64,000 nt of DNA from Bdellovibrionales bacterium. Lineage in GTDB: Bacteria; Bdellovibrionota; Bdellovibrionia; Bdellovibrionales; UBA1609. Under the pieces are notes generated by a model. It was given only the letters and a program-made list of their open reading frames with translations. It had not been told where the DNA came from and did no database searches. Made by a program: the position numbers and the translations under genes. Shown here one piece after another: positions 6,088 through 50,585 of the stretch (the stretch's first letter is position 1; each line of letters starts with the position of its first letter). The DNA lies in assembly GCA_020628165.1 (NCBI GenBank), contig JAHDFM010000017.1, positions 17,690 through 81,689 of the forward strand, written 5' to 3'.

Positions 6088-7575
6088 TTAAAACAACACC
6101 ATCGTTGATTTTAAGACATACAAGTAAAGCTTGTTGGCAAAGATACCAAAGATCACTAATAAGCTAGCGCATGAAATCACTGCCATCATAGAAAATCTCT
6201 TCTCTCTAAAGTTAATAGTTTCCGTTAACTTTGATGGCATGTCTGCAAAGTACATATTCACAATTGGTCGTAGATAGTAATAAACACTGATCACTGAACC
6301 GACAACAGCCCAAATACTTAACCAAATAAAACCTTGTTGCAATGACGCTGAAATCACAAAGAACTTAGAGAAAAAGCCCATCAACGGCGGTATGCCTGCC
6401 AAGCTTAAAAGCGTGATCGTAAGAGCTGCAGCTAACCACGGATGGTTGTAGCCCATGCCTTTTAAGTCATCCACGCTCAATATGGTGTTATGTCTTTTTT
6501 CTAAAATATTTACTATTCCAAAACTAGCCAACGTCATAAAAGCATAAGCAGTTAGGTAAAATAACATCGCAGTAACACCTGCAGCAGAATCTGTGCTCAC
6601 CCCTGCTGCTAATAAACCCAACAAGGCATAACCTGTGTGTGCCACACCAGAATAAGCAAGAAGACGTTTTAAATTACTTTGAATAATCGCCGCAAAATTA
6701 CCAACTAAAATTGTTAAAGCGGCTAACCACTCAAGGCTATTTAAAATTACAATTGAGTCTTCGTTGATTAAAAATTGCGTGCCAAACCACCTTAACAAAG
6801 CATAGAAGCTAACAATCTTCACACCCGTTGCCATGAAATTAGTGATCGCTGTCGGAGAGCCTTGATAAACATCAGGAGTCCAAGAGAAAAATGGGAACGC
6901 AGCCACTTTAAAAAATAAACCTAAGGTCACCATCAGGCTTCCAATCAGAAAGATACGACTTGTAGAAATCAACTCTGGAGCTACACCAGCAATTTCTTGC
7001 AAGTAAGTAGAACCTACTGAACCATAGATAAAAGAAATCCCATACAAGAAAATCGCAGACGCTAAACTTCCCAAAACAAAGTACTTAAGAGCACTTTCCT
7101 TAGATAGCCTCTCTTCGTAGGTTAACGTGATGGCCATATAAATACACAGTGACATCACCTCAATACCAATGAATAAAACGATCAAATCATTGGCCCACAA
7201 AACCACTAGCATTCCAAGTGTGGAGTTCATTATTAAAAACAAAAGCTCAGAGAATAAATTACGATCTGTGAACGAGCTCTCTTTAGCATAAATTACTGAA
7301 AATGCAGCCGTGATCAAAACCACTAGGCTTGCAAAAGTGGCCGAAGAGTCTACTTTCAAAGCATTTGAAAAAACATAAGAATTGGTTTTTTCCATTAGCA
7401 ATACCAAACCAAATGAAATTAAAATGCCTGTAAGAGCATATAAAACTGAACCAGCATGATTTATTTCTCTGTTGTTGCTAAACACTTTAGTTAACAAAGG
7501 TGGTAAACTAAAAATAAATAAAGTTATCAGTGGTAGTATTAAAACTAAATCTTGAATGCCAATATTAATATTCAT
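6088..7575 (-). CDS. nuoN: NADH-quinone oxidoreductase subunit N
   Basis: 495-aa polytopic antiporter-like ORF. Last gene of the nuo array; 4-nt overlap with nuoM. Confidence 0.88.
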   Translation of the reverse strand: MNINIGIQDLVLILPLITLFIFSLPPLLTKVFSNNREINHAGSVLYALTGILISFGLVLLMEKTNSYVFSNALKVDSSATFASLVVLITAAFSVIYAKESSFTDRNLFSELLFLIMNSTLGMLVVLWANDLIVLFIGIEVMSLCIYMAITLTYEERLSKESALKYFVLGSLASAIFLYGISFIYGSVGSTYLQEIAGVAPELISTSRIFLIGSLMVTLGLFFKVAAFPFFSWTPDVYQGSPTAITNFMATGVKIVSFYALLRWFGTQFLINEDSIVILNSLEWLAALTILVGNFAAIIQSNLKRLLAYSGVAHTGYALLGLLAAGVSTDSAAGVTAMLFYLTAYAFMTLASFGIVNILEKRHNTILSVDDLKGMGYNHPWLAAALTITLLSLAGIPPLMGFFSKFFVISASLQQGFIWLSIWAVVGSVISVYYYLRPIVNMYFADMPSKLTETINFREKRFSMMAVISCASLLVIFGIFANKLYLYVLKSTMVLF

Positions 7576-21581: not shown

Positions 21582-21983
21582 TTATTTTGTGATACTTAGG
21601 CGGGTGATGGCTCGCTTCATTTTGTTCATATATTTTGCGAGATCTTCGGCACCTAGATCTTTGAAATTATCTAGTTTGTCTTCTGAGTCTTTCAAAGCTT
21701 TTTCTGAACGGGCTTTATCGATCTCTGCTGAGCTTTCTGCTTTTTCAGCTAAGACTTCAATTTTGTTTGCATTGATTTCGCAATAGCCCCAGCTGATTGC
21801 AAAATTCTGATAGTCTGAACTTTCGGTTTCTTTATATTTTAAAACTCCAATGTCTAGTGTTGTAATGAGCGGTGAGTGACCGTCAAGAACAGTGAGCTCA
21901 CCTCTGTGTGCAGGGACAACAACCTCACACACTTCTTTATCAACTAATAATTTTTTATTTGGAGTTACAATATTTAAAACCAT
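21582..21983 (-). CDS. atpC: F1 ATP synthase epsilon subunit
   Basis: 133-aa ORF directly after atpD, with an epsilon-like N-terminal beta-domain and C-terminal helices. Confidence 0.88.
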   Translation of the reverse strand: MVLNIVTPNKKLLVDKEVCEVVVPAHRGELTVLDGHSPLITTLDIGVLKYKETESSDYQNFAISWGYCEINANKIEVLAEKAESSAEIDKARSEKALKDSEDKLDNFKDLGAEDLAKYMNKMKRAITRLSITK

Positions 21984-21991
21984 TTTTTATC

Positions 21992-24287
<2,296 letters not shown>

Positions 24288-24303
24288 TCTTCAGTTTACC
24301 TTA

Positions 24304-26361
<2,058 letters not shown>

Positions 26362-26362
<1 letters not shown>

Positions 26363-26913
26363 TATTGAACCGCCTCAATGTTTCTTATGAATTCGTCTTT
26401 TAATTTTTGTAAATCCGGTTGTGACATACCTTCACTTAAACCTACTTTAGCCTTCTTAAAAGATTTAGAGAGCAAGTCCATTTTAAGCTCACTCACTATT
26501 TTATTTTTCTCATTCATAATTTTACTTTCAGAATCGATGATGATTTTTTTAGCCTGTTCGTTGGCATTATTAATTAGAGTTTCAGAGTTATTTTTGGCAT
26601 TCACTTTAGCTTCAGAGATTGACTTATCAGCGTTCACTTTGAGCTGCTCTAAACGCTCTTTGATTTCATCTCTATTTTTTATTGCCAGTTCTTTTTGCTC
26701 TTGAGCTTTTCTAAACTCTTCATCAAATTTATCAACTCTGCCAACGAAAAGTGCTTTGATTTTGTCTTTTAATAACCAAGTGAGTATCCCAATCGCTAAG
26801 ATCACATTCACAGTTTGGGCAGTGATCATTGACCATGGAATGCCTTCTCCGCCACCAGCTGAAAAAGCGGCTGTGCTGTATAATAATATGCTAAGAACTA
26901 AAATTAATTTCAT
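26362..26913 (-). CDS. atpF: Fo ATP synthase b subunit
   Basis: 183 aa. One TM segment followed by a long charged helix. Extra N-terminal signal-like segment MKLILVLSILLYSTAAFSAGGGEG. Confidence 0.78.
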
Positions 26914-26925
26914 GCATTCACTCCA

Positions 26926-27357
26926 TCAGCCGATCACTGATTCTTTGATCAGTTTTGCAAGAGGTTCAACTTCACCACTCAATTGATTCATTAAATTCTT
27001 TTTGGTTTCTTCTAATTGATTTTCAGATGATTTTTTAAGCTCAGAAGATTTTAATAAAGCATCTTTTATAATGTCGTCTTGTTTTAAAAGAGCGTCTTTT
27101 TTTTCATCGTCAAAAATTTTCTTGATTTTGAAGTTGAGAGCTTTCGCGTTTTCTTCATATTCTTTTTCAAGGAGAGCTGTTTCTTCAACAATTTGAGTGG
27201 CTTTTTCTTCGCTACCGGTTGTTCGATTGTAGCGCTCTAGATAAGCATCAAAATACGGTTTAAACACTAAGCGAGTCAGTATTATGTAACCGATAAGAAA
27301 CAATAAAAACTGTATAAAAATGGTATTATCAATACCAAGGGCTTTCAGCATTTCCAT
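26926..27357 (-). CDS. Fo ATP synthase b-prime-like subunit
   Basis: 143 aa. Single N-terminal TM segment plus a charged coiled helix. First gene of the atp(F'FHAGDC) array. Confidence 0.68.
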   Translation of the reverse strand: MEMLKALGIDNTIFIQFLLFLIGYIILTRLVFKPYFDAYLERYNRTTGSEEKATQIVEETALLEKEYEENAKALNFKIKKIFDDEKKDALLKQDDIIKDALLKSSELKKSSENQLEETKKNLMNQLSGEVEPLAKLIKESVIG

Positions 27358-29786: not shown

Positions 29787-29802
29787 TGTTCCACGTGGAA
29801 CA
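29787..29802. other. parS: parS centromere-like site
   Basis: Perfect 16-bp palindrome TGTTCCACGTGGAACA, within 2 nt of the TGTTNCACGTGAAACA consensus (from memory). Lies 78 nt upstream of the parA start. Confidence 0.85.
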
Positions 29803-29832: not shown

Positions 29833-30342
29833 ATGAATATTTTTTATACGACCCTTATTTTAGCTCTCTTTTTAACATCTTGTGTAAATACTAAGATGAA
29901 AAACCCAGAAGTAGAGGATTTAGTCTATTTGGATATCCAAAAGGATATAGCTGCTATTGATAGAGTAGTAAAACTACGAGAAACAGAAATACAAGTTATA
30001 AGAGATGAAATGAGGTCACTCAAAGTACGCTCACCACTTTTAAACGTTAAACAGAAAAGAATTGATAATATGTCAGATGACGTAAAAAGATTCGTACAAT
30101 TAAAGAAGTACTTACTGATTAAGAAGAAGAAAAGAAGCGTTTACGCTAAAATACTCTATGAACTTCACTATAATGACAAAGATGCCTACCCATGGCCTGA
30201 TCAAGCTGAGTATTCATCTTACTTAGTTGAAAAAGAAAGTAATATGCTGCCAATCAGAGAAATCAACAAAGCCGATAGCAGTAGAGAACTCACTCACAAA
30301 AAGGATGTAAGTAAAATCCTACGAGAAAATGGCTTAAACTGA
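29833..30342 (+). CDS. Hypothetical lipoprotein
   Basis: 169 aa. Signal plus lipobox LALFLTSC; charged coiled-coil-like body. Opposite strand to all neighbours and flanked by both parS sites. Confidence 0.5.
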   Translation: MNIFYTTLILALFLTSCVNTKMKNPEVEDLVYLDIQKDIAAIDRVVKLRETEIQVIRDEMRSLKVRSPLLNVKQKRIDNMSDDVKRFVQLKKYLLIKKKKRSVYAKILYELHYNDKDAYPWPDQAEYSSYLVEKESNMLPIREINKADSSRELTHKKDVSKILRENGLN

Positions 30343-30343
30343 A

Positions 30344-30359
30344 TGTTCCACGTGGAACA
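30344..30359. other. parS: parS centromere-like site
   Basis: Second identical palindrome TGTTCCACGTGGAACA, starting 2 nt after the stop of the lipoprotein ORF. Confidence 0.85.
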
Positions 30360-30452
30360 ATGGCTAGTTCTTCCCCTCTACACCTCTTTTTTATATTTTG
30401 TAATTTTTGGTTTAATTTGGTGCTAATTATGAGGGTGTTTGAATAAAAACCC

Positions 30453-30566
30453 AATGAGTTGGCGTGTTTATTTTCCGTACTCAGACAGCTATGGACAGCA
30501 CCGCTCGCCATTGGCGAGCAGCGCACCCACAGAACTCCGTGCGGACAATAAACACGCCAACTCATT
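30453..30566 (-). repeat. GC-rich 114-nt extended-hairpin module, copy 1 (candidate structured RNA or element terminus)
   Basis: Perfect 20-bp outer stem AATGAGTTGGCGTGTTTATT / AATAAACACGCCAACTCATT. Conserved GC-rich core with apical stem GCTCGCC-ATT-GGCGAGC. G-T wobbles favour the minus strand 4 to 1. Confidence 0.6.
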
Positions 30567-31441
30567 TAGAATATGTATTTTTTTAGATATACTCATATTT
30601 ACCCCTTTGTAATAGCTGGCTTTTATGAGTCATATTTACTTTTATTTAATTAGTTATTACTAATTAACCTACATTACTCAAAATTATTCTCATAATACAA
30701 AGAGCTTGGTGTATAGGCTCAGAACAGTGGCTGCGTGGTGGTAGAGAAACTTAATGTAGTAAACATTTATAAACCTGATTATTTAAGATTCATCATAGTT
30801 TTACTATTAAATTCTATGAACTACTTACTAATAATCTTTTTAGGCTACCTATCAAGAGCCACCTTCCAATAATACATATAAAACTATTAGGTACTCCATA
30901 TATTGAAGATAAACCTATAAAGGACCATAAAGATATTTTAATGGACTAGCTCTTATTACGTTGGATAGCGTTTTATTGATAGTTTAGTAATGTGGCTAAC
31001 GAAGTGTCTACTGTATAAATATATAACTTCTAAAACTATTATTCAGGATTGTTGATTAGTAAAAAGAGTAAAATCTATTCAAGATTCACAACACATTATA
31101 CCACATAGTAAATGGACTCTTTTAAAATATAGATCATTGTATATACTAATTTAATCAGAGACAGCTTTAAACAATTTATAAACAAGACATAGCTATGATA
31201 GTAACTAACTAGTTCAACTAGCGTTTGTGCTTGCCAAAACCAAAAGAACTAGGCTTTAAAAAAAGTTTAAGGAATTTCTTTATGAGTTATTAACCAGCTA
31301 AAAATCCAAAATTCCTTTTCAGCAAAATAAGCCCAAAAAACACCACCACGCGAGAGTAGAAACGCAGCCCTGTCTTTCTTAATAACAGCGAAGTAGAGCA
31401 TAGTTATTGTTTAATTTAACGGTTTTGTTTAGAGATATCTA

Positions 31442-31555
31442 AAAGAAATCAAATACTTGTGTTCTGCACGCAGTTCCGCGGGTGTGCTGCTCGCCGACGG
31501 CGAGCGGTGCTGCCCGAGGCTGTCTGAGTACGGGACATAAGTATTTGATTTCTTT
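31442..31555 (+). repeat. GC-rich 114-nt extended-hairpin module, copy 2 (inverted relative to copy 1)
   Basis: Perfect 17-bp outer stem AAAGAAATCAAATACTT / AAGTATTTGATTTCTTT, unrelated to the copy 1 stem. Same core and apical stem GCTCGCC-GAC-GGCGAGC. G-T wobbles favour the plus strand 6 to 1. Confidence 0.6.
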
Positions 31556-31603
31556 GAGTTTTACTGCAACACTGGCAAATAAAAAGCAAGAAACGAAGGC
31601 GGA

Positions 31604-32320
31604 CTACAAAGAAAAACAGGTCGTTTTTACGATATGTCTTTCTCCTAGATCATTAGAAAGCTTATAAGTGTGAATATGCTCAGGCTTCCAAACACTTAAT
31701 AATTGTGACGGCATATCCGCAACCTCATTGGACCAAAGTGGACCCTTTAAATGATAGTATGTTCCACCAACAGCAAAGGCTTTTCTTGTTAGAAGACATG
31801 ATTTTGTGATGGAGGCAAAACCTCGACTAACAGCTGTTTGTATTCCATTGCCGAGAACCTTACCTACGTCTTGGTTATGGACAGCTACATTTTTCAAGGC
31901 AAGCTTTGTAGTCATGTACTTTAAAAATTCAAGCTTGCGATTATCGTTGTCCATTAAAACAAATTTTCTATTCTGATCTAGAATTGCCATGATCAACCCT
32001 GGAAAACCATTTCCGGAACCAAAGTCGTATATAATATCTGAATCAGTGTCTTCCAGAATTTGTTCACTTGCTAGGTAGCTGTCTAAAAAATGTAAGACAT
32101 CAGCATCATAAATTGAGTTTTTTGAAACTAGATTAATCTTCTGGTTAAATTTGACTAAATCTTCGTGATAAACCTCAAATCGTTTTTTGTGTGGATTATC
32201 AGGTAGTATTTCATTAAGACGCCAAAATATTTTTCTTGGACCATCTAGGTTTTTTTCGAGAATCAAAGCCTGTTGCTTTTCCTCATCTGTTGCTTCTAAG
32301 AAGATGTATCTACCTTTCAC
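31604..32320 (-). CDS. rsmG: 16S rRNA (guanine527-N7)-methyltransferase RsmG (GidB)
   Basis: 238 aa. SAM motif [11 protein letters not shown]. Directly downstream of mnmG, with an 11-nt overlap. Confidence 0.88.
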
Positions 32321-38873: not shown

Positions 38874-40274
38874 ATGAATAAAGACAATCTATGGAATCAA
38901 ATCAAAAATTCTCTCAAATTAAAGAACTCAAACAACGCCCTAGTGCAAACATGGTTTGAACCAACCGAGCTCATTTCTATTGAAAACGATGATGATGGCA
39001 GCCGTTTTAAGTTATCTGTACCAACTGAGTTGCATCGTTATTGGATCAATGAACATCTATTAGATACTATTTTCCTTGAAATATCAGCTATTTATGGGAA
39101 GCCTTTTCAAATAGAGTTCATTGTTGACGAAACTAAAAGCAACGATCAAAGCTCGGATCAACCAAGCACTCCATTTAATGAAAATCCAGTCTTTGTTAAT
39201 TCTCAACCTCAACGACCTACCTTCATTCAACAACCAAAAAATAAAGACACTTTAAATTCAGAATACACCTTTAACACTTTTGTCGTTGGTCGAAACAATG
39301 AATTTGCCCATGCAGCCTCCTACAGTATTTCTCAAAATCCTGGCGGCAATAACTATAACCCACTATTTATATGTGGACCGACTGGTATGGGTAAAACTCA
39401 CCTTCTCAATGCTGTTGGCAATCAAATAAAGTTAAAGTTTCCTCATTTACGAGTGAATTATATTTCGTCGGAACGTTTTTTAAATGAGTGCATCTCTGGC
39501 ATTCAAAGACAACAAATGGACAAGTTCAGGAAAAAATTCCGACAGGATTGTGATGTCCTATTAATGGATGACATTCAATTTTTAGGTCGTGGTGAAGCAG
39601 TCCAAGAAGAATTTTTCCACACACTCAATGACTTCTTCGAAAAGAAACATCAGGTAGTGGTTGCCAGTGACCGTATGCCAAAAGATATCTCTGGCCTCGA
39701 AGAAAGAATTCGAACTCGCCTTGAGTGGGGCTTAATCGCCGACATCCAAATGCCAGATATCGAAACTCGTGTTGCTATTTTAAAGTACAAAGCTGAAAGA
39801 ATTAAACTTAACATCAATCAAGAAGTGATCACTTACATTGCCCGCATCTCTAAACGCTCCATTCGTGAACTTGAGGGCAATTTAAATAAGGTCAAAATGT
39901 TTTCTGAGCTGCAAGGTTTAAACATCACCATTGATCTCGCTAAAAAAGTATTAGCTACACATGATGACACCACAGCTATGACGGTTTCTGAAATTCAAAA
40001 AATGGTTGCTGAACATTTCAGCGTAAGAGTTAGCGACTTAAAGTCTAAATCAAGAACTAAACAATTAGTGATCGCACGACAATCTGCTATGTATTTGGTC
40101 AAAAGACATTTAGATAAATCCTTAGTTGATATCGGTAAAGCCTTTGGCGGCAAGGATCACTCAACAGTGATCAATGCCATCAAAAAAATCGAGAATCAAC
40201 TGACAAAAAATTCAGATTTAAAGAGTGATATTAAATATTTAGAGACCAAAATACACAATATCACAGGGGTGTGA
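38874..40274 (+). CDS. dnaA: Chromosomal replication initiator DnaA
   Basis: 466 aa. Walker A GPTGMGKTHLL; domain IV ...GGKDHSTVINAIKKI. Confidence 0.97.
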   Translation: MNKDNLWNQIKNSLKLKNSNNALVQTWFEPTELISIENDDDGSRFKLSVPTELHRYWINEHLLDTIFLEISAIYGKPFQIEFIVDETKSNDQSSDQPSTPFNENPVFVNSQPQRPTFIQQPKNKDTLNSEYTFNTFVVGRNNEFAHAASYSISQNPGGNNYNPLFICGPTGMGKTHLLNAVGNQIKLKFPHLRVNYISSERFLNECISGIQRQQMDKFRKKFRQDCDVLLMDDIQFLGRGEAVQEEFFHTLNDFFEKKHQVVVASDRMPKDISGLEERIRTRLEWGLIADIQMPDIETRVAILKYKAERIKLNINQEVITYIARISKRSIRELEGNLNKVKMFSELQGLNITIDLAKKVLATHDDTTAMTVSEIQKMVAEHFSVRVSDLKSKSRTKQLVIARQSAMYLVKRHLDKSLVDIGKAFGGKDHSTVINAIKKIENQLTKNSDLKSDIKYLETKIHNITGV

Positions 40275-40496
40275 ATAACCAATGTTTAAAACTATGCAAA
40301 TAACTCTGTGGATAACTTGTTCATTGTATTTATCCACAAAAAAAAGAGTAAAAAGAAGAAATTATAACAAAATTTATACACACCAATTTATTAATATTTT
40401 TAATTACTTAACTTGTTAAATGAGTTACTAACACTACTACTACTATTACTAATTTATAAATAAAAGAAATAGTAAATAAAGAGGGGTTTTTGAAAG
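40270..40496. other. oriC: Candidate oriC (DnaA-box cluster plus AT-rich unwinding region)
   Basis: Four 9-mers fit TTATNCACA: TGTGAATAA 40270-40278, TGTGGATAA 40307-40315, TTATCCACA 40330-40338, TTATACACA 40374-40382. They are followed by a very AT-rich run up to the dnaN start. Confidence 0.6.
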
Positions 40497-49536: not shown

Positions 49537-50226
49537 ATGGTTCATTTTAACTGGACTCAATTGATCCCTGGAGTTGGTCACCATTATGTTCACGTGGCAA
49601 CTGCTGTTGTTCTCGTCGGACTATTTCTTGTTGTTGCCTGTGTTGCAAGAGTGTCTCTAGGAAAAGGCGAAGCTGCCATTCGACCTGCTGGGAGTTTATC
49701 ACTTAAGGGCATTTTCGAATTATTTACCGAGTTTATTGCCAGCCTCAGTAACATGGTTGTCGGAGAGAAAGGCCGTAACTTTGTTCCACTGTTTGCAGCG
49801 ACATTCACTTTTATCTTATTAAATAACTTAGTTGGTTTGTTACCAGGAATGACTCCTCCAACAGATAACATAAACTCAACTGTCGGTTTTGGTATATTTT
49901 CTTTCATTGCCTATAACGTTTACGGTTTGAAGGAGCACGGCTTAGCTTATTTCAAACAATTTCTGGGTCCTTTGATATATTTAGCTCCACTTATGGTTGT
50001 TATTGAATTGATCAGTCATATTGTTCGACCTATATCACTTGGACTCAGACTCCAAGGTAATATGATGGGTGACCACACAGTTCTAGGTATCTTCCTAGAT
50101 CTCGTGCCATATGGTGTCCCTGTTATATTTTATTTTTTAGGAATGTTTGTCTGCTTTATGCAGGCGTTTGTTTTTACAATGTTAACCATGATATATGTCG
50201 CGATGGCAATATCTCATGATCACTAA
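49537..50226 (+). CDS. atpB: Fo ATP synthase a subunit
   Basis: 229 aa. Conserved stator Arg region ISLGLRLQGNMMGDH. Confidence 0.92.
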   Translation: MVHFNWTQLIPGVGHHYVHVATAVVLVGLFLVVACVARVSLGKGEAAIRPAGSLSLKGIFELFTEFIASLSNMVVGEKGRNFVPLFAATFTFILLNNLVGLLPGMTPPTDNINSTVGFGIFSFIAYNVYGLKEHGLAYFKQFLGPLIYLAPLMVVIELISHIVRPISLGLRLQGNMMGDHTVLGIFLDLVPYGVPVIFYFLGMFVCFMQAFVFTMLTMIYVAMAISHDH

Positions 50227-50539: not shown

Positions 50540-50550
50540 TTATGATTCAA

Positions 50551-50582
50551 TATAAAGTGTAAGCTATTAATTACACTTTATA
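50551..50582 (+). terminator. Hairpin after atpE
   Basis: Perfect 12-bp stem TATAAAGTGTAA / TTACACTTTATA with an 8-nt loop, followed by TTT. Ends 3 nt before ATG 50586. Confidence 0.4.
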
Positions 50583-50585
50583 TTT

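Follow-up and report, generated by a model that had tools for sequence, protein, structure and literature searches.

Two long, GC-rich hairpins of 114 nt (here M1 and M2) face away from each other across an AT-rich stretch devoid of genes in the chromosome of a Bdellovibrionota bacterium, and the question that they raise is what such a pair of structures is for. We tentatively favour the reading that M1 and M2 are outward-facing RNA hairpins that would end or stabilise transcripts, and in doing so would shelter parS and the genes on either side; judged from the DNA alone, we hold this at somewhat less than even confidence. The analysis covered one window (i.e., the whole 64-kb stretch of DNA), in which the hairpins occupy the spacer between rsmG and parS, about 9 kb from oriC. 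The host is known solely from assemblies, and the modules are known from two copies.

A lineage-specific insert beside parS

The features that define the locus are as follows (coordinates are those of the window).

29833-30342, plus strand: left flanking gene, encoding a 169-aa protein and pointing toward the insert
30344-30359, unstranded: parS palindrome TGTTCCACGTGGAACA, with the layout seen in B. bacteriovorus (PMC10547168)
30360-31603, unstranded: lineage-specific spacer from parS to the rsmG stop codon, 1244 nt
30567-31441, unstranded: AT-rich interior between M1 and M2, 875 nt, 29% GC
31604-32320, minus strand: right flanking gene rsmG (gidB), pointing toward the insert

The 169-aa protein belongs to no Pfam family, has a lipoprotein-like N-terminus (by eye) and is encoded at a position like that of bd3907; parS abuts the stop codon of its gene, and M1 lies 93 nt from parS. 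On the other side, rsmG is the final gene of an mnmE-mnmG-rsmG run, and the extra block sits between these two convergent genes, together with the parS site. The origin itself lies in the dnaA-dnaN spacer, where a cluster of DnaA boxes (40270-40382, two of them perfect) falls at the skew minimum, a placement that matches B. bacteriovorus (PMC5124646). In that species the immediate sequence context of parS has been shown experimentally to control ParB clustering (PMC10547168).

Of five syntenic relatives, four have a parS-rsmG spacer of 1-35 nt and the fifth has one of about 325 nt; here it measures 1244 nt, which identifies the block as lineage-specific extra DNA. The initial annotation had described the hairpins by themselves; the context missing from its account is this 1.2-kb insertion beside parS and near oriC. 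The locus is no assembly artefact, since an independent Logan contig (L064, run SRR14415275) reproduces window positions 30010-31853 with a single mismatch, at 31772 in rsmG.

The interior of the insert contains no genes: ORFs reach at most 45 aa, and stretches free of stop codons at most 56 aa. It shows no similarity to the rest of the window or to the relatives' loci, where the only matches to the spacer are parS itself. Three readings of the interior were rejected: that of a decayed gene, as none of its stop-free stretches matches a Pfam family; that of a structured RNA, with fold z-scores of -0.8 and -0.9; and that of an origin, with a lone DnaA box carrying one mismatch, the true cluster being the one at 40270-40382.

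Anatomy and stability of the two modules

The modules and the longer units in which they lie are listed here with their favoured sense.

30453-30566, minus strand (favoured sense): M1, 114-nt extended hairpin; outer stem perfect over 20 bp, GC-rich core of 74 nt
31442-31555, plus strand (favoured sense): M2, 114-nt extended hairpin; outer stem perfect over 17 bp, core of 74 nt
30434-30574, minus strand: full homologous unit around M1, forming the left inverted-repeat arm, conserved TCTA inward of the hairpin, GGGTTTTTATTCAAACAC outward of it, U-run at 30442-30449
31434-31575, plus strand: full homologous unit around M2, forming the right inverted-repeat arm, conserved TCTA inward of the hairpin, GAGTTTTACTGCAACAC outward of it, U-run at 31559-31562

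The coordinates, equal lengths and inverted orientation first reported for M1 and M2 are all correct, and both perfect outer stems are present: the arms are AATGAGTTGGCGTGTTTATT / AATAAACACGCCAACTCATT in M1 and AAAGAAATCAAATACTT / AAGTATTTGATTTCTTT in M2, where the helix reaches 25 contiguous pairs if G·U pairs are counted. Equally sound is the description of a common apical stem, GCTCGCC/GGCGAGC, with loops ATT and GAC (M1 30503-30519, loop 30510-30512; M2 31489-31505, loop 31496-31498); read in the outward sense, these unlike 3-nt loops are AAU in M1 and GAC in M2. The inverted arms at 30439-30570 and 31438-31569 are 71% complementary over 132 nt, and homology extends to about 30434 and 31575.

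Folding of both strands bears out that each module forms one long hairpin, with RNA minimum free energies of -72.8 (M1, minus), -62.0 (M1, plus), -70.6 (M2, plus) and -53.2 kcal/mol (M2, minus); compared with dinucleotide-shuffled sequences, the z-scores range from -8.6 to -11.8. A comparison of the strands had been suggested at the outset, and the energies proved unequal: in both copies the outward sense is better by 11-17 kcal/mol, an advantage that holds with DNA parameters as well. M1 and M2 are by far the most stable folds of the 64-kb window. When it was folded in sliding 120-nt segments (n=8518; mean -20.6, SD 6.0), they reached -73.9 and -71.7 at this same scale, about 9 SD from the mean, as against -44.6 for the best unrelated segment.

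As a side observation, M1 and M2 could also pair with each other over long range in read-through RNA (-150 and -153 kcal/mol, compared with -135 and -129 kcal/mol for the local hairpins). We set this pairing aside as it lacks strand asymmetry and is expected of any inverted repeat.

Pairing conserved apart from sequence

M1 and M2 align without gaps over about 139 nt. Their cores are identical at 61 of 74 positions (82%, within the 80-85% initially estimated by eye), and their outer arms at 9/20 and 10/20. In this one pairwise comparison of two copies, the pattern is one of covariation: all 49 pairs are held in both copies, with 12 double changes (10 in the outer stem and 2 in the core), 6 one-sided changes and none broken. 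Each of the six one-sided changes gives a G·U pair when read outward, where the inward strand would have A·C, and controls with slid partners gave 35-46% pairing and 0-3 double changes. The compensatory pairs that the initial annotation had named (C31477-G31518 and C31479-G31516, opposite U-A in M1) are right, and the total exceeds its count. Both copies also keep the same mismatches, the same internal loops and three G·U pairs within the core. With a core that is 82% identical and outer arms that are 45-50% identical yet perfectly paired, core and outer stem are under different constraints.

Correction of a palindrome at the DNA level could mimic covariation in the perfect outer stems, whose Watson-Crick pairing is strand-symmetric. 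The outer stems show no similarity to inverted copies of their flanks (p = 0.3-0.8), and as candidate guides they have no target in the 64-kb window at up to 2 mismatches.

Beyond the variable stem segment, which has exactly the same length in M1 and M2, homology resumes, on the 5' side with TCTA and on the 3' side with GnGTTTT..CAACAC, along with the basal pairs AAnGA/TCnTT. Downstream of each hairpin it extends for about 20 nt, upstream for only 4-7 nt, and this imbalance fits a 3'-end module rather than a gene that carries its own promoter.

Strand asymmetry and adjacent U-runs

G·U pairs are concentrated in the outward sense, with 6 in M1 (minus) and 7 in M2 (plus) as against 1 and 1 inward; the bias toward the outward sense that had been reported is thus upheld, while the counts given for it (4 and 6) are revised upward. 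With the three shared positions counted once, the asymmetry is about 9 to about 2 and is moderately significant (p about 0.03, a binomial estimate).

Each stem continues for 2 bp (C-G plus U·G or U-A) past a single A×G mismatch, and a T-run, as first noted, directly follows this extended stem: TTTTTATT at 30449-30442 (minus) in M1 and TTTTAC at 31559-31564 (plus) in M2. As RNA these runs read UUUUUAUU and UUUUAC, and in both copies they abut the stem in the outward sense only. They are short (5 U and 4 U), they lie beside a stem base that is AU-rich and includes the A×G mismatch, and a simple terminator scanner makes no call on these 114-nt hairpins. An AU-rich mismatched base, short U-runs and hairpins several times the typical length together make the efficiency of termination doubtful. 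The 64-kb window shows no enrichment of canonical terminators, and a search of the region for sigma-70-like promoters gave 3 matches against 5.6 expected, none of them convincing.

Searches for relatives

M1 and M2 are orphans in the collections searched: no relative was found in Rfam or among genomes, metagenomes, viruses, plasmids and phages. Rfam, one of the checks initially proposed, returned 0 matches at gathering thresholds over the whole window, and thus no known RNA family; at E<10 over 30300-31700 it gave sub-threshold noise, the best match being Trp_leader at 21.5 bits against a gathering threshold of 41. A covariance model of the modules (R1), likewise proposed, was run with filters off on the 64-kb window and nine relatives' loci and recovered M1 and M2 only. 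Among GTDB representative genomes an exact 20-base core pattern had 54 single matches, all in GC-rich genomes and none with a second motif, and at these 54 the model matches the apical stem alone, as expected by chance. Pattern scans of JGI metagenomes yielded 0 matches, those of IMG/VR viruses yielded 0, 0 and 65 chance matches, and a blastn search of plasmids and phages with the entire spacer yielded none. Copies were also sought through spurious ORFs: two same-frame peptide alignments gave no candidates in a 5.8-billion protein set, and a 57-aa module ORF gave one low-complexity chance match (P0076) among 1.84 billion representatives. Literature on Bdellovibrio repeats or hairpins contained nothing relevant that we could find.

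As for mobility, inspection by eye of every plausible boundary, for the block and for each module, shows no target-site duplication, and the 64-kb window holds no transposase, integrase, recombinase or reverse transcriptase gene, all scanned ORFs being housekeeping. Because an independent k-mer assembly passes straight through M1 and M2, that genome has no near-identical copies of them. Among the hallmarks of MITEs, terminal inverted repeats are present; no target-site duplication is visible, the window has no transposase, and no dispersed copies turned up in the window, the nine relatives' loci or the collections scanned.

Three known classes were considered and rejected on these grounds. REP/REPIN elements do not fit a pair with two copies only, a tip rather than a base that is conserved, and no Y1 transposase in the window; integron attC sites do not fit inverted copies that lack core sites, with no integrase in the window; and SRP, 6S or Y RNA, which the shape of a 114-nt hairpin brings to mind, do not fit in that Rfam gives no match and their conserved motifs are absent.

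A reading as outward RNA hairpins

The initial annotation had proposed strand-specific RNAs, with transcripts diverging from the AT-rich centre. Pairing, G·U bias and U-runs favour this proposal, on two copies only. From the same features we infer transcription of the region, termination or stabilisation at its hairpins, and a benefit of insulation. M1 and M2 would be paralogous elements that work as single strands, in all likelihood of RNA, and point outward from a non-coding 1.2-kb insert, such that a transcript starting in or crossing the interior would finish in a hairpin of 49-51 pairs followed by a U-run. On the minus strand, M1 would be encountered by leftward transcription, read-through of mnmE-mnmG-rsmG included; on the plus strand, M2 would be encountered by rightward transcription, read-through of the 169-aa gene included. 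In either case the hairpin may act by termination, by protecting the RNA from 3' exonucleases, or in both ways. An extra block placed between convergent genes without outward stops would send antisense transcripts into both neighbours, and the hairpins would insulate parS, the 169-aa gene and rsmG from transcription that would otherwise reach them. The central 13 bp of each outer helix would be constrained by pairing alone, their sequence being free, while the GC-rich core, which retains three G·U pairs and its internal loops, is constrained in sequence and thus probably has a specific partner, e.g., a protein or a nuclease.

Alternative explanations

The main rival, possible though rather unlikely, is that the 1.14-kb block (about 30434-31575) is a non-autonomous mobile element of the foldback type, with M1 and M2 as terminal inverted repeats of about 140 bp that are recognised, possibly as single strands folded from opposite strands at either end, by a transposase or recombinase encoded elsewhere; the RNA-like features would then be by-products. 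The block is absent from five of five syntenic relatives, its interior is non-coding, AT-rich and without matches, and the 132-nt, 71% terminal repeats are homologous out to their very tips (GTGTT(T)G...). Mirrored strand asymmetry, too, is expected of ends that are processed on opposite strands. Against mobility stand the lack of a visible target-site duplication at plausible boundaries, of any transposase, integrase or reverse transcriptase gene in the window, and of another copy in the window, the nine relatives' loci or the genome, metagenome and viral collections searched; the independent assembly that spans both modules further speaks against near-identical copies in that genome. Moreover, terminal repeats bound by a transposase conserve their sequence, and ten compensatory changes in the stem are not what such binding would leave.

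We regard as decidedly unlikely that M1 and M2 are paralogous small RNAs in which the outer helix serves as a processing stem, constrained in pairing only (e.g., for RNase III), that releases the GC-rich core of about 75 nt as a stable RNA, whose partner would be sequence-specific. The split constraint is what this predicts, with a perfect, sequence-free outer helix around a sequence-conserved core bearing G·U pairs and internal loops, and strand asymmetry is present. The minimal substrate of RNase III measures about two helical turns, a length that the outer helices reach. The two copies have no promoter in common, however, since homology ends 4-7 nt upstream; the unlike apical loops (AAU, GAC) leave no conserved loop-based recognition, there is no Rfam family, and two copies in one lineage are thin support for a family of RNA genes.

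More improbable still is that the palindromes have no function, an ancestral palindrome having been duplicated in inverted orientation within a fast-evolving spacer and templated repair from arm to arm having mimicked covariation. Outer stems that are perfect on both strands are as DNA-level correction predicts, the spacer is labile in the clade (1-35, 325 and 1244 nt), and no homologue or gene was found in support of function. Yet correction should have perfected the core too, where mismatches, loops and three G·U pairs are kept in both copies; conservation is much higher in the core than in the stem; and this reading explains neither the mirrored bias in G·U pairs nor the conserved U-runs next to the hairpins.

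The initial annotation's other suggestion, that a mobile GC-rich core of about 75 nt was inserted into the loops of two unrelated AT-rich hairpins, accounts for an 82% identical core between arms whose identity (45-50%) is near random, but we reject it as extremely improbable, since homology continues in the flanks beyond the stems, in register, without gaps and over equal lengths, both modules being exactly 114 nt, and the window offers neither empty long AT-rich palindromes nor further copies of the core. Just as implausible is an invertible switch in which site-specific recombination between M1 and M2 flips the 875-nt interior: inverted repeats with identical blocks of 10 and 14 nt do flank an AT-rich, possibly promoter-bearing segment, but the centre of the common block differs (AAT vs GAC, same sense), the repeats are only 71% identical, no recombinase gene lies in the window, and the orientation is the same in two independent assemblies.

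Relation to known systems

Intrinsic terminators and REP-type 3' stabilisers resemble M1 and M2 in that a stable hairpin between convergent genes is followed by a U-run in one sense, and in that pairing is conserved while the stem sequence drifts. Their differences are of scale and placement: 49-51 pairs over 114 nt compare with the usual 5-15 pairs of an intrinsic terminator, the base is AU-rich and mismatched, the GC-rich tip is conserved in sequence with fixed internal loops, and the modules face outward from a non-coding insert instead of standing right behind genes that they would serve.

MITEs and other palindromic repeats (Neisseria Correia, ERIC, RUP, Rickettsia RPE and Coxiella MITEs) are likewise intergenic units of about 100-150 nt that fold as a whole into one long hairpin, and the Rickettsia RPE shares with M1 and M2 a GC-rich composition relative to an AT-rich host. 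Repeats of this MITE-like type that form RNA hairpins can act as terminators or RNA-processing sites. These families have many copies, conserved terminal repeats and usually target-site duplications; M1 and M2, by contrast, are known from two copies, vary precisely in the terminal stem and show no duplication. Two inverted palindromic units also bracket a unique interior in MITE-flanked mobilisation units and in eukaryotic foldback elements (the analogy to parvovirus-type palindromic ITRs is purely formal), but here there is no cargo gene, known enzyme or second locus, and mobility is suggested solely by absence from relatives.

The end hairpins of IS200/IS605 and REP-RAYT elements and the attC sites of integrons are imperfect hairpins with conserved mismatches in which one strand is functional and part of the stem is conserved in structure more than in sequence, much as in M1 and M2. 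However, the R/L core sites (GTTRRRY) are missing from the modules, and in attC the tip is the variable part and the base the conserved one, opposite to the arrangement here; IS200/IS605 ends are direct rather than inverted, and neither an integrase nor a TnpA/RAYT gene is nearby.

If the favoured reading as terminators or insulators is true, the locus would show a genome tolerating AT-rich extra DNA, capped by long RNA hairpins, beside essential origin-proximal functions, namely the parS/ParAB centromere and the mnmE-mnmG-rsmG operon. If instead the modules have a specific partner, they would form a new family of structured RNA or folded DNA, unusual for its division into a helix constrained in pairing only and a sequence-specific core. 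A distinctly unlikely extension is that M1 and M2 are the founding members of an undescribed class of single-strand elements (either a new RNA family with a specificity stem or the folded ends of a non-coding mobile element), which may modulate the loading or spreading of ParB. Such a class would amount to a conserved GC-rich hairpin scaffold bearing a freely re-programmable 13-bp helix, and in its mobile version the two ends would be processed on opposite strands. The locus is part of a region whose sequence context controls ParB clustering in Bdellovibrio (PMC10547168).

Structure and Covariation of the Paired Hairpins

The sequence of the two modules is as the initial annotation described it, and a repeat finder recovers both internal palindromes and a 132-nt inverted repeat between the modules.

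30453–30566, minus strand favored: hairpin module M1, 114 nt
31442–31555, plus strand favored: hairpin module M2, 114 nt
30567–31441: interior between the modules, 875 nt
30360–31603: parS–rsmG spacer holding all of these (the “insert”)

Folding of both strands, which the annotation had proposed, yields a single extended hairpin per module with energies unequal between strands (M1, −72.8 kcal/mol on the minus and −62.0 on the plus strand; M2, −70.6 on the plus and −53.2 on the minus), at z-scores of −8.6 to −11.8 against dinucleotide shuffles averaging −26 to −34; DNA folding parameters leave the ranking of strands and modules unchanged. In 8518 sliding folds of 120 nt, taken over the full window on both strands (mean −20.6, SD 6.0), M1 (−73.9) and M2 (−71.7) are extreme outliers, the best unrelated stretch reaching −44.6. 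The window contains a 27-nt block (GCTGCTCGCCnnnGGCGAGCGGTGCTG) in exactly two places, and shuffled sequence never contains it. The arrangement is not a mis-assembly, since an independent assembly from a separate sequencing run (Logan contig L064, SRR14415275, 1844 nt) reproduces window positions 30010–31853 bar one base in rsmG. The contig of a near-identical strain (L061, SRR14415273; RsmG differs by one amino acid) ends at window position 31532, 7 nt into the M2 core, perhaps because coverage was low or sequencing dropped out at the hairpin; L064, by contrast, spans both modules.

Read outward from the AT-rich center (i.e., M1 on the minus and M2 on the plus strand), the copies align without gaps over 139 nt. 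Identity is 61/74 (82%) in the 74-nt core, 9/20 and 10/20 in the two 20-nt outer arms, and 80/114 over the whole module. Both copies share the pairs AAnGA/TCnTT at the stem base, TCTA immediately 5′ of the hairpin, and ~20 nt on its 3′ side (GnGTTTT..A.T.CAACAC). As homology resumes beyond the variable part, the variable zone is an internal 13-bp helix segment, of the same length in both copies.

Pairing, evaluated with RNAalifold and an explicit count of 49 pairs in the two copies, is complete: 100% of cells are paired and no pair is broken. Changes are double-sided at 12 of the 49 pairs (10 in the outer helix, two in the core) and one-sided at six, all of these G·U in the outward sense. As a control, sliding the 3′ partners by 1–3 columns lowers pairing to 35–46% and double changes to 0–3. 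Three G·U pairs are kept in both copies, and in the minimum-energy folds G·U pairs number 6 and 7 outward vs. 1 and 1 inward; with shared positions counted once, this mirrored wobble bias carries modest statistical weight. Each stem gains, in the outward sense, two further pairs past one A×G mismatch, and a U-run follows directly (UUUUUAUU in M1, UUUUAC in M2); no T-run adjoins either stem in the inward sense.

The Insert and Its Neighborhood

On one side of the insert lie the atp operon, a bactofilin gene, parB, parA and a 169-aa gene of no known family; beyond it come rsmG, mnmG, mnmE, yidC and rnpA, then, on the other strand, dnaA, dnaN, recF and gyrB. The remaining scanned ORFs are all housekeeping (Lon, nuo subunits, Mfd, gyrA, PGM, SurA, ETF, Sdh), and the ORFs scanned in the window include no transposase, integrase or reverse transcriptase. 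Those rsmG homologues that carry source names are from Bdellovibrionales or Pseudobdellovibrionaceae. Two identical perfect parS palindromes (TGTTCCACGTGGAACA) flank the 169-aa gene:

29787–29802: parS
30344–30359: parS, abutting the stop codon of the 169-aa gene

Paired parS sites around a small gene between rsmG and parA are conserved in all relatives fetched (6755–6770 and 7302–7317 in locus L055; also in L056–L059, L062 and L063). The order rsmG, parS, small unknown gene, parS, parA, parB, bactofilin is also that of Bdellovibrio bacteriovorus (bd3908 to bd3904), where ParB is kept from clustering in attack-phase cells by short stretches of chromosome around each parS (PMC10547168).

We compared five relatives' loci with exactly the same gene order (rsmG proteins 51–67% identical to that of the window). 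The distance from the rsmG stop to parS is 1–35 nt in L055, L057, L062 and L063, ~325 nt in L059 (AT-rich, with seven CTATTCA repeats), and 1244 nt in the window, with parS the only alignable part. Judged from these five loci, the insert is lineage-specific extra DNA. The heptamers of L059, a more distant relative (GCA_020630675.1), stand in tandem at 6780–6840 and look like iterons or binding-site arrays; the rsmG–parS spacer seems to be a hotspot of non-coding expansion in the clade.

The interior has 29% GC, no ORF >45 aa, no Pfam match in its stop-free stretches, no significant RNA fold (z = −0.8 and −0.9), no tandem repeats, and no similarity to the rest of the window, the relatives' loci, plasmids or phages. 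The GC-rich hairpin has few stop codons, which has probably given rise to two spurious, singleton ORF calls: one of 91 aa (30290–30565, minus; no Pfam family) that takes in M1, parS and, in antisense, the 3′ end of the 169-aa gene, called in NCBI- and Logan-derived protein sets, and one of 44 aa in the interior (31267–31401, minus), called in the NCBI-derived set only. Both modules carry a conserved TCTAAA at their inner foot, whose opposite-strand reading is TTTAGA. On the M1 side (30565–30593, plus) this TTTAGA resembles a −35 hexamer with TATACT 17 nt away, and the two may make up a promoter firing inward, at a level not above chance by the scanner's shuffles; on the M2 side (TTTAGA at 31437–31442, minus) there is a weak −10 only.

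Search for Relatives

The initial annotation had placed the hairpins in no family, and the window indeed matches none in Rfam. A covariance model built from M1 and M2, as suggested there, picks up these two alone in the window with filters off, and finds no match in the relatives' loci. Core-pattern scans returned 54 chance matches among GTDB representatives (in GC-rich genomes and never accompanied by the second motif), 0 and 0 in JGI metagenomes, and 0, 0 and 65 chance matches in IMG/VR. On pattern-selected loci the model matches the apical stem alone, as expected, because the loci were chosen by that pattern. Searching for further copies through the translated spurious ORFs found no relatives. 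That the L064 contig passes through both modules argues against further near-identical copies in that genome.

Proposed Function and Alternatives

M1 and M2 stand as an orphan pair: hairpins of unusual length, with a covarying stem and a conserved core, on either side of a non-coding insert next to a centromere site; it is this structure and covariation that are striking, in two copies at one locus of one uncultured lineage. Three features point to a putative single-strand function read outward: pairing is fully retained through 18 variable pairs, the G·U bias is mirrored between copies, and the conserved U-run adjoins the stem in that sense only. Because homology extends downstream but not upstream of the hairpin, the duplicated unit looks like a 3′-end module rather than a promoter-bearing gene. 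The outer helix, sequence-free and perfectly paired, suggests a purely structural role, and the core, conserved and imperfect, a specific partner. We tentatively favor RNA hairpins that may terminate or stabilize transcripts leaving or crossing the insert. The flanking parS, 169-aa gene and rsmG would thus be shielded from antisense read-through. We infer transcription, its ending at the hairpins and this shielding from the features above. Several points weaken this reading: two copies are known, the U-runs are short and the stems AU-rich at their base, the wobble bias is statistically modest, the promoter scan gave no evidence of promoters for M1/M2 transcription, and canonical terminators are not enriched in the window. 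The proposed mode of working resembles that of terminators and of REP-type 3′ hairpins; in build, the pair resembles MITE-type or foldback inverted-repeat elements, and it fits neither class in full.

The first alternative is a non-autonomous mobile element with ~140-bp hairpin-forming terminal inverted repeats. The anatomy matches and relatives lack the insert, but we found no target-site duplication, second copy or enzyme, and covariation is not expected of transposase-bound repeats, so we consider this unlikely. That the cores are small RNAs freed from a processing stem seems to us improbable. Neutral palindromes, their complementarity maintained by templated DNA repair, would account for the perfect outer stems but leave the core's conserved imperfections, the wobble bias and the U-runs unexplained, and we give this little credence. 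Insertion into hairpin tips, raised in the initial annotation, is contradicted by homologous in-register flanks and equal module lengths, and an invertible DNA switch by differing module centers, a repeat identity of 71%, the lack of any recombinase found and two assemblies agreeing in orientation; both are highly improbable.

Origin Region and atp Genes

40270–40382: DnaA-box cluster in the dnaA–dnaN spacer, likely oriC
21582–27357: putative atp b, delta, alpha, gamma, beta and epsilon genes (assigned by size and order only)
49537–50226: ATP synthase a-subunit gene (Pfam ATP-synt_A)

The DnaA-box cluster, with perfect boxes (TTATCCACA) at 40307 and 40330, sits at the cumulative GC-skew minimum in the window's most AT-rich stretch (23–25% GC). 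In B. bacteriovorus, oriC likewise lies in the dnaA–dnaN spacer (PMC5124646). The 875-nt interior, with a single one-mismatch DnaA box, was ruled out as oriC. The a-subunit gene lies ~22 kb from the other atp genes, across oriC, so there are two separate atp loci. Some ~320 nt downstream of the a-subunit gene lies a perfect 14-bp inverted repeat (50549–50584).
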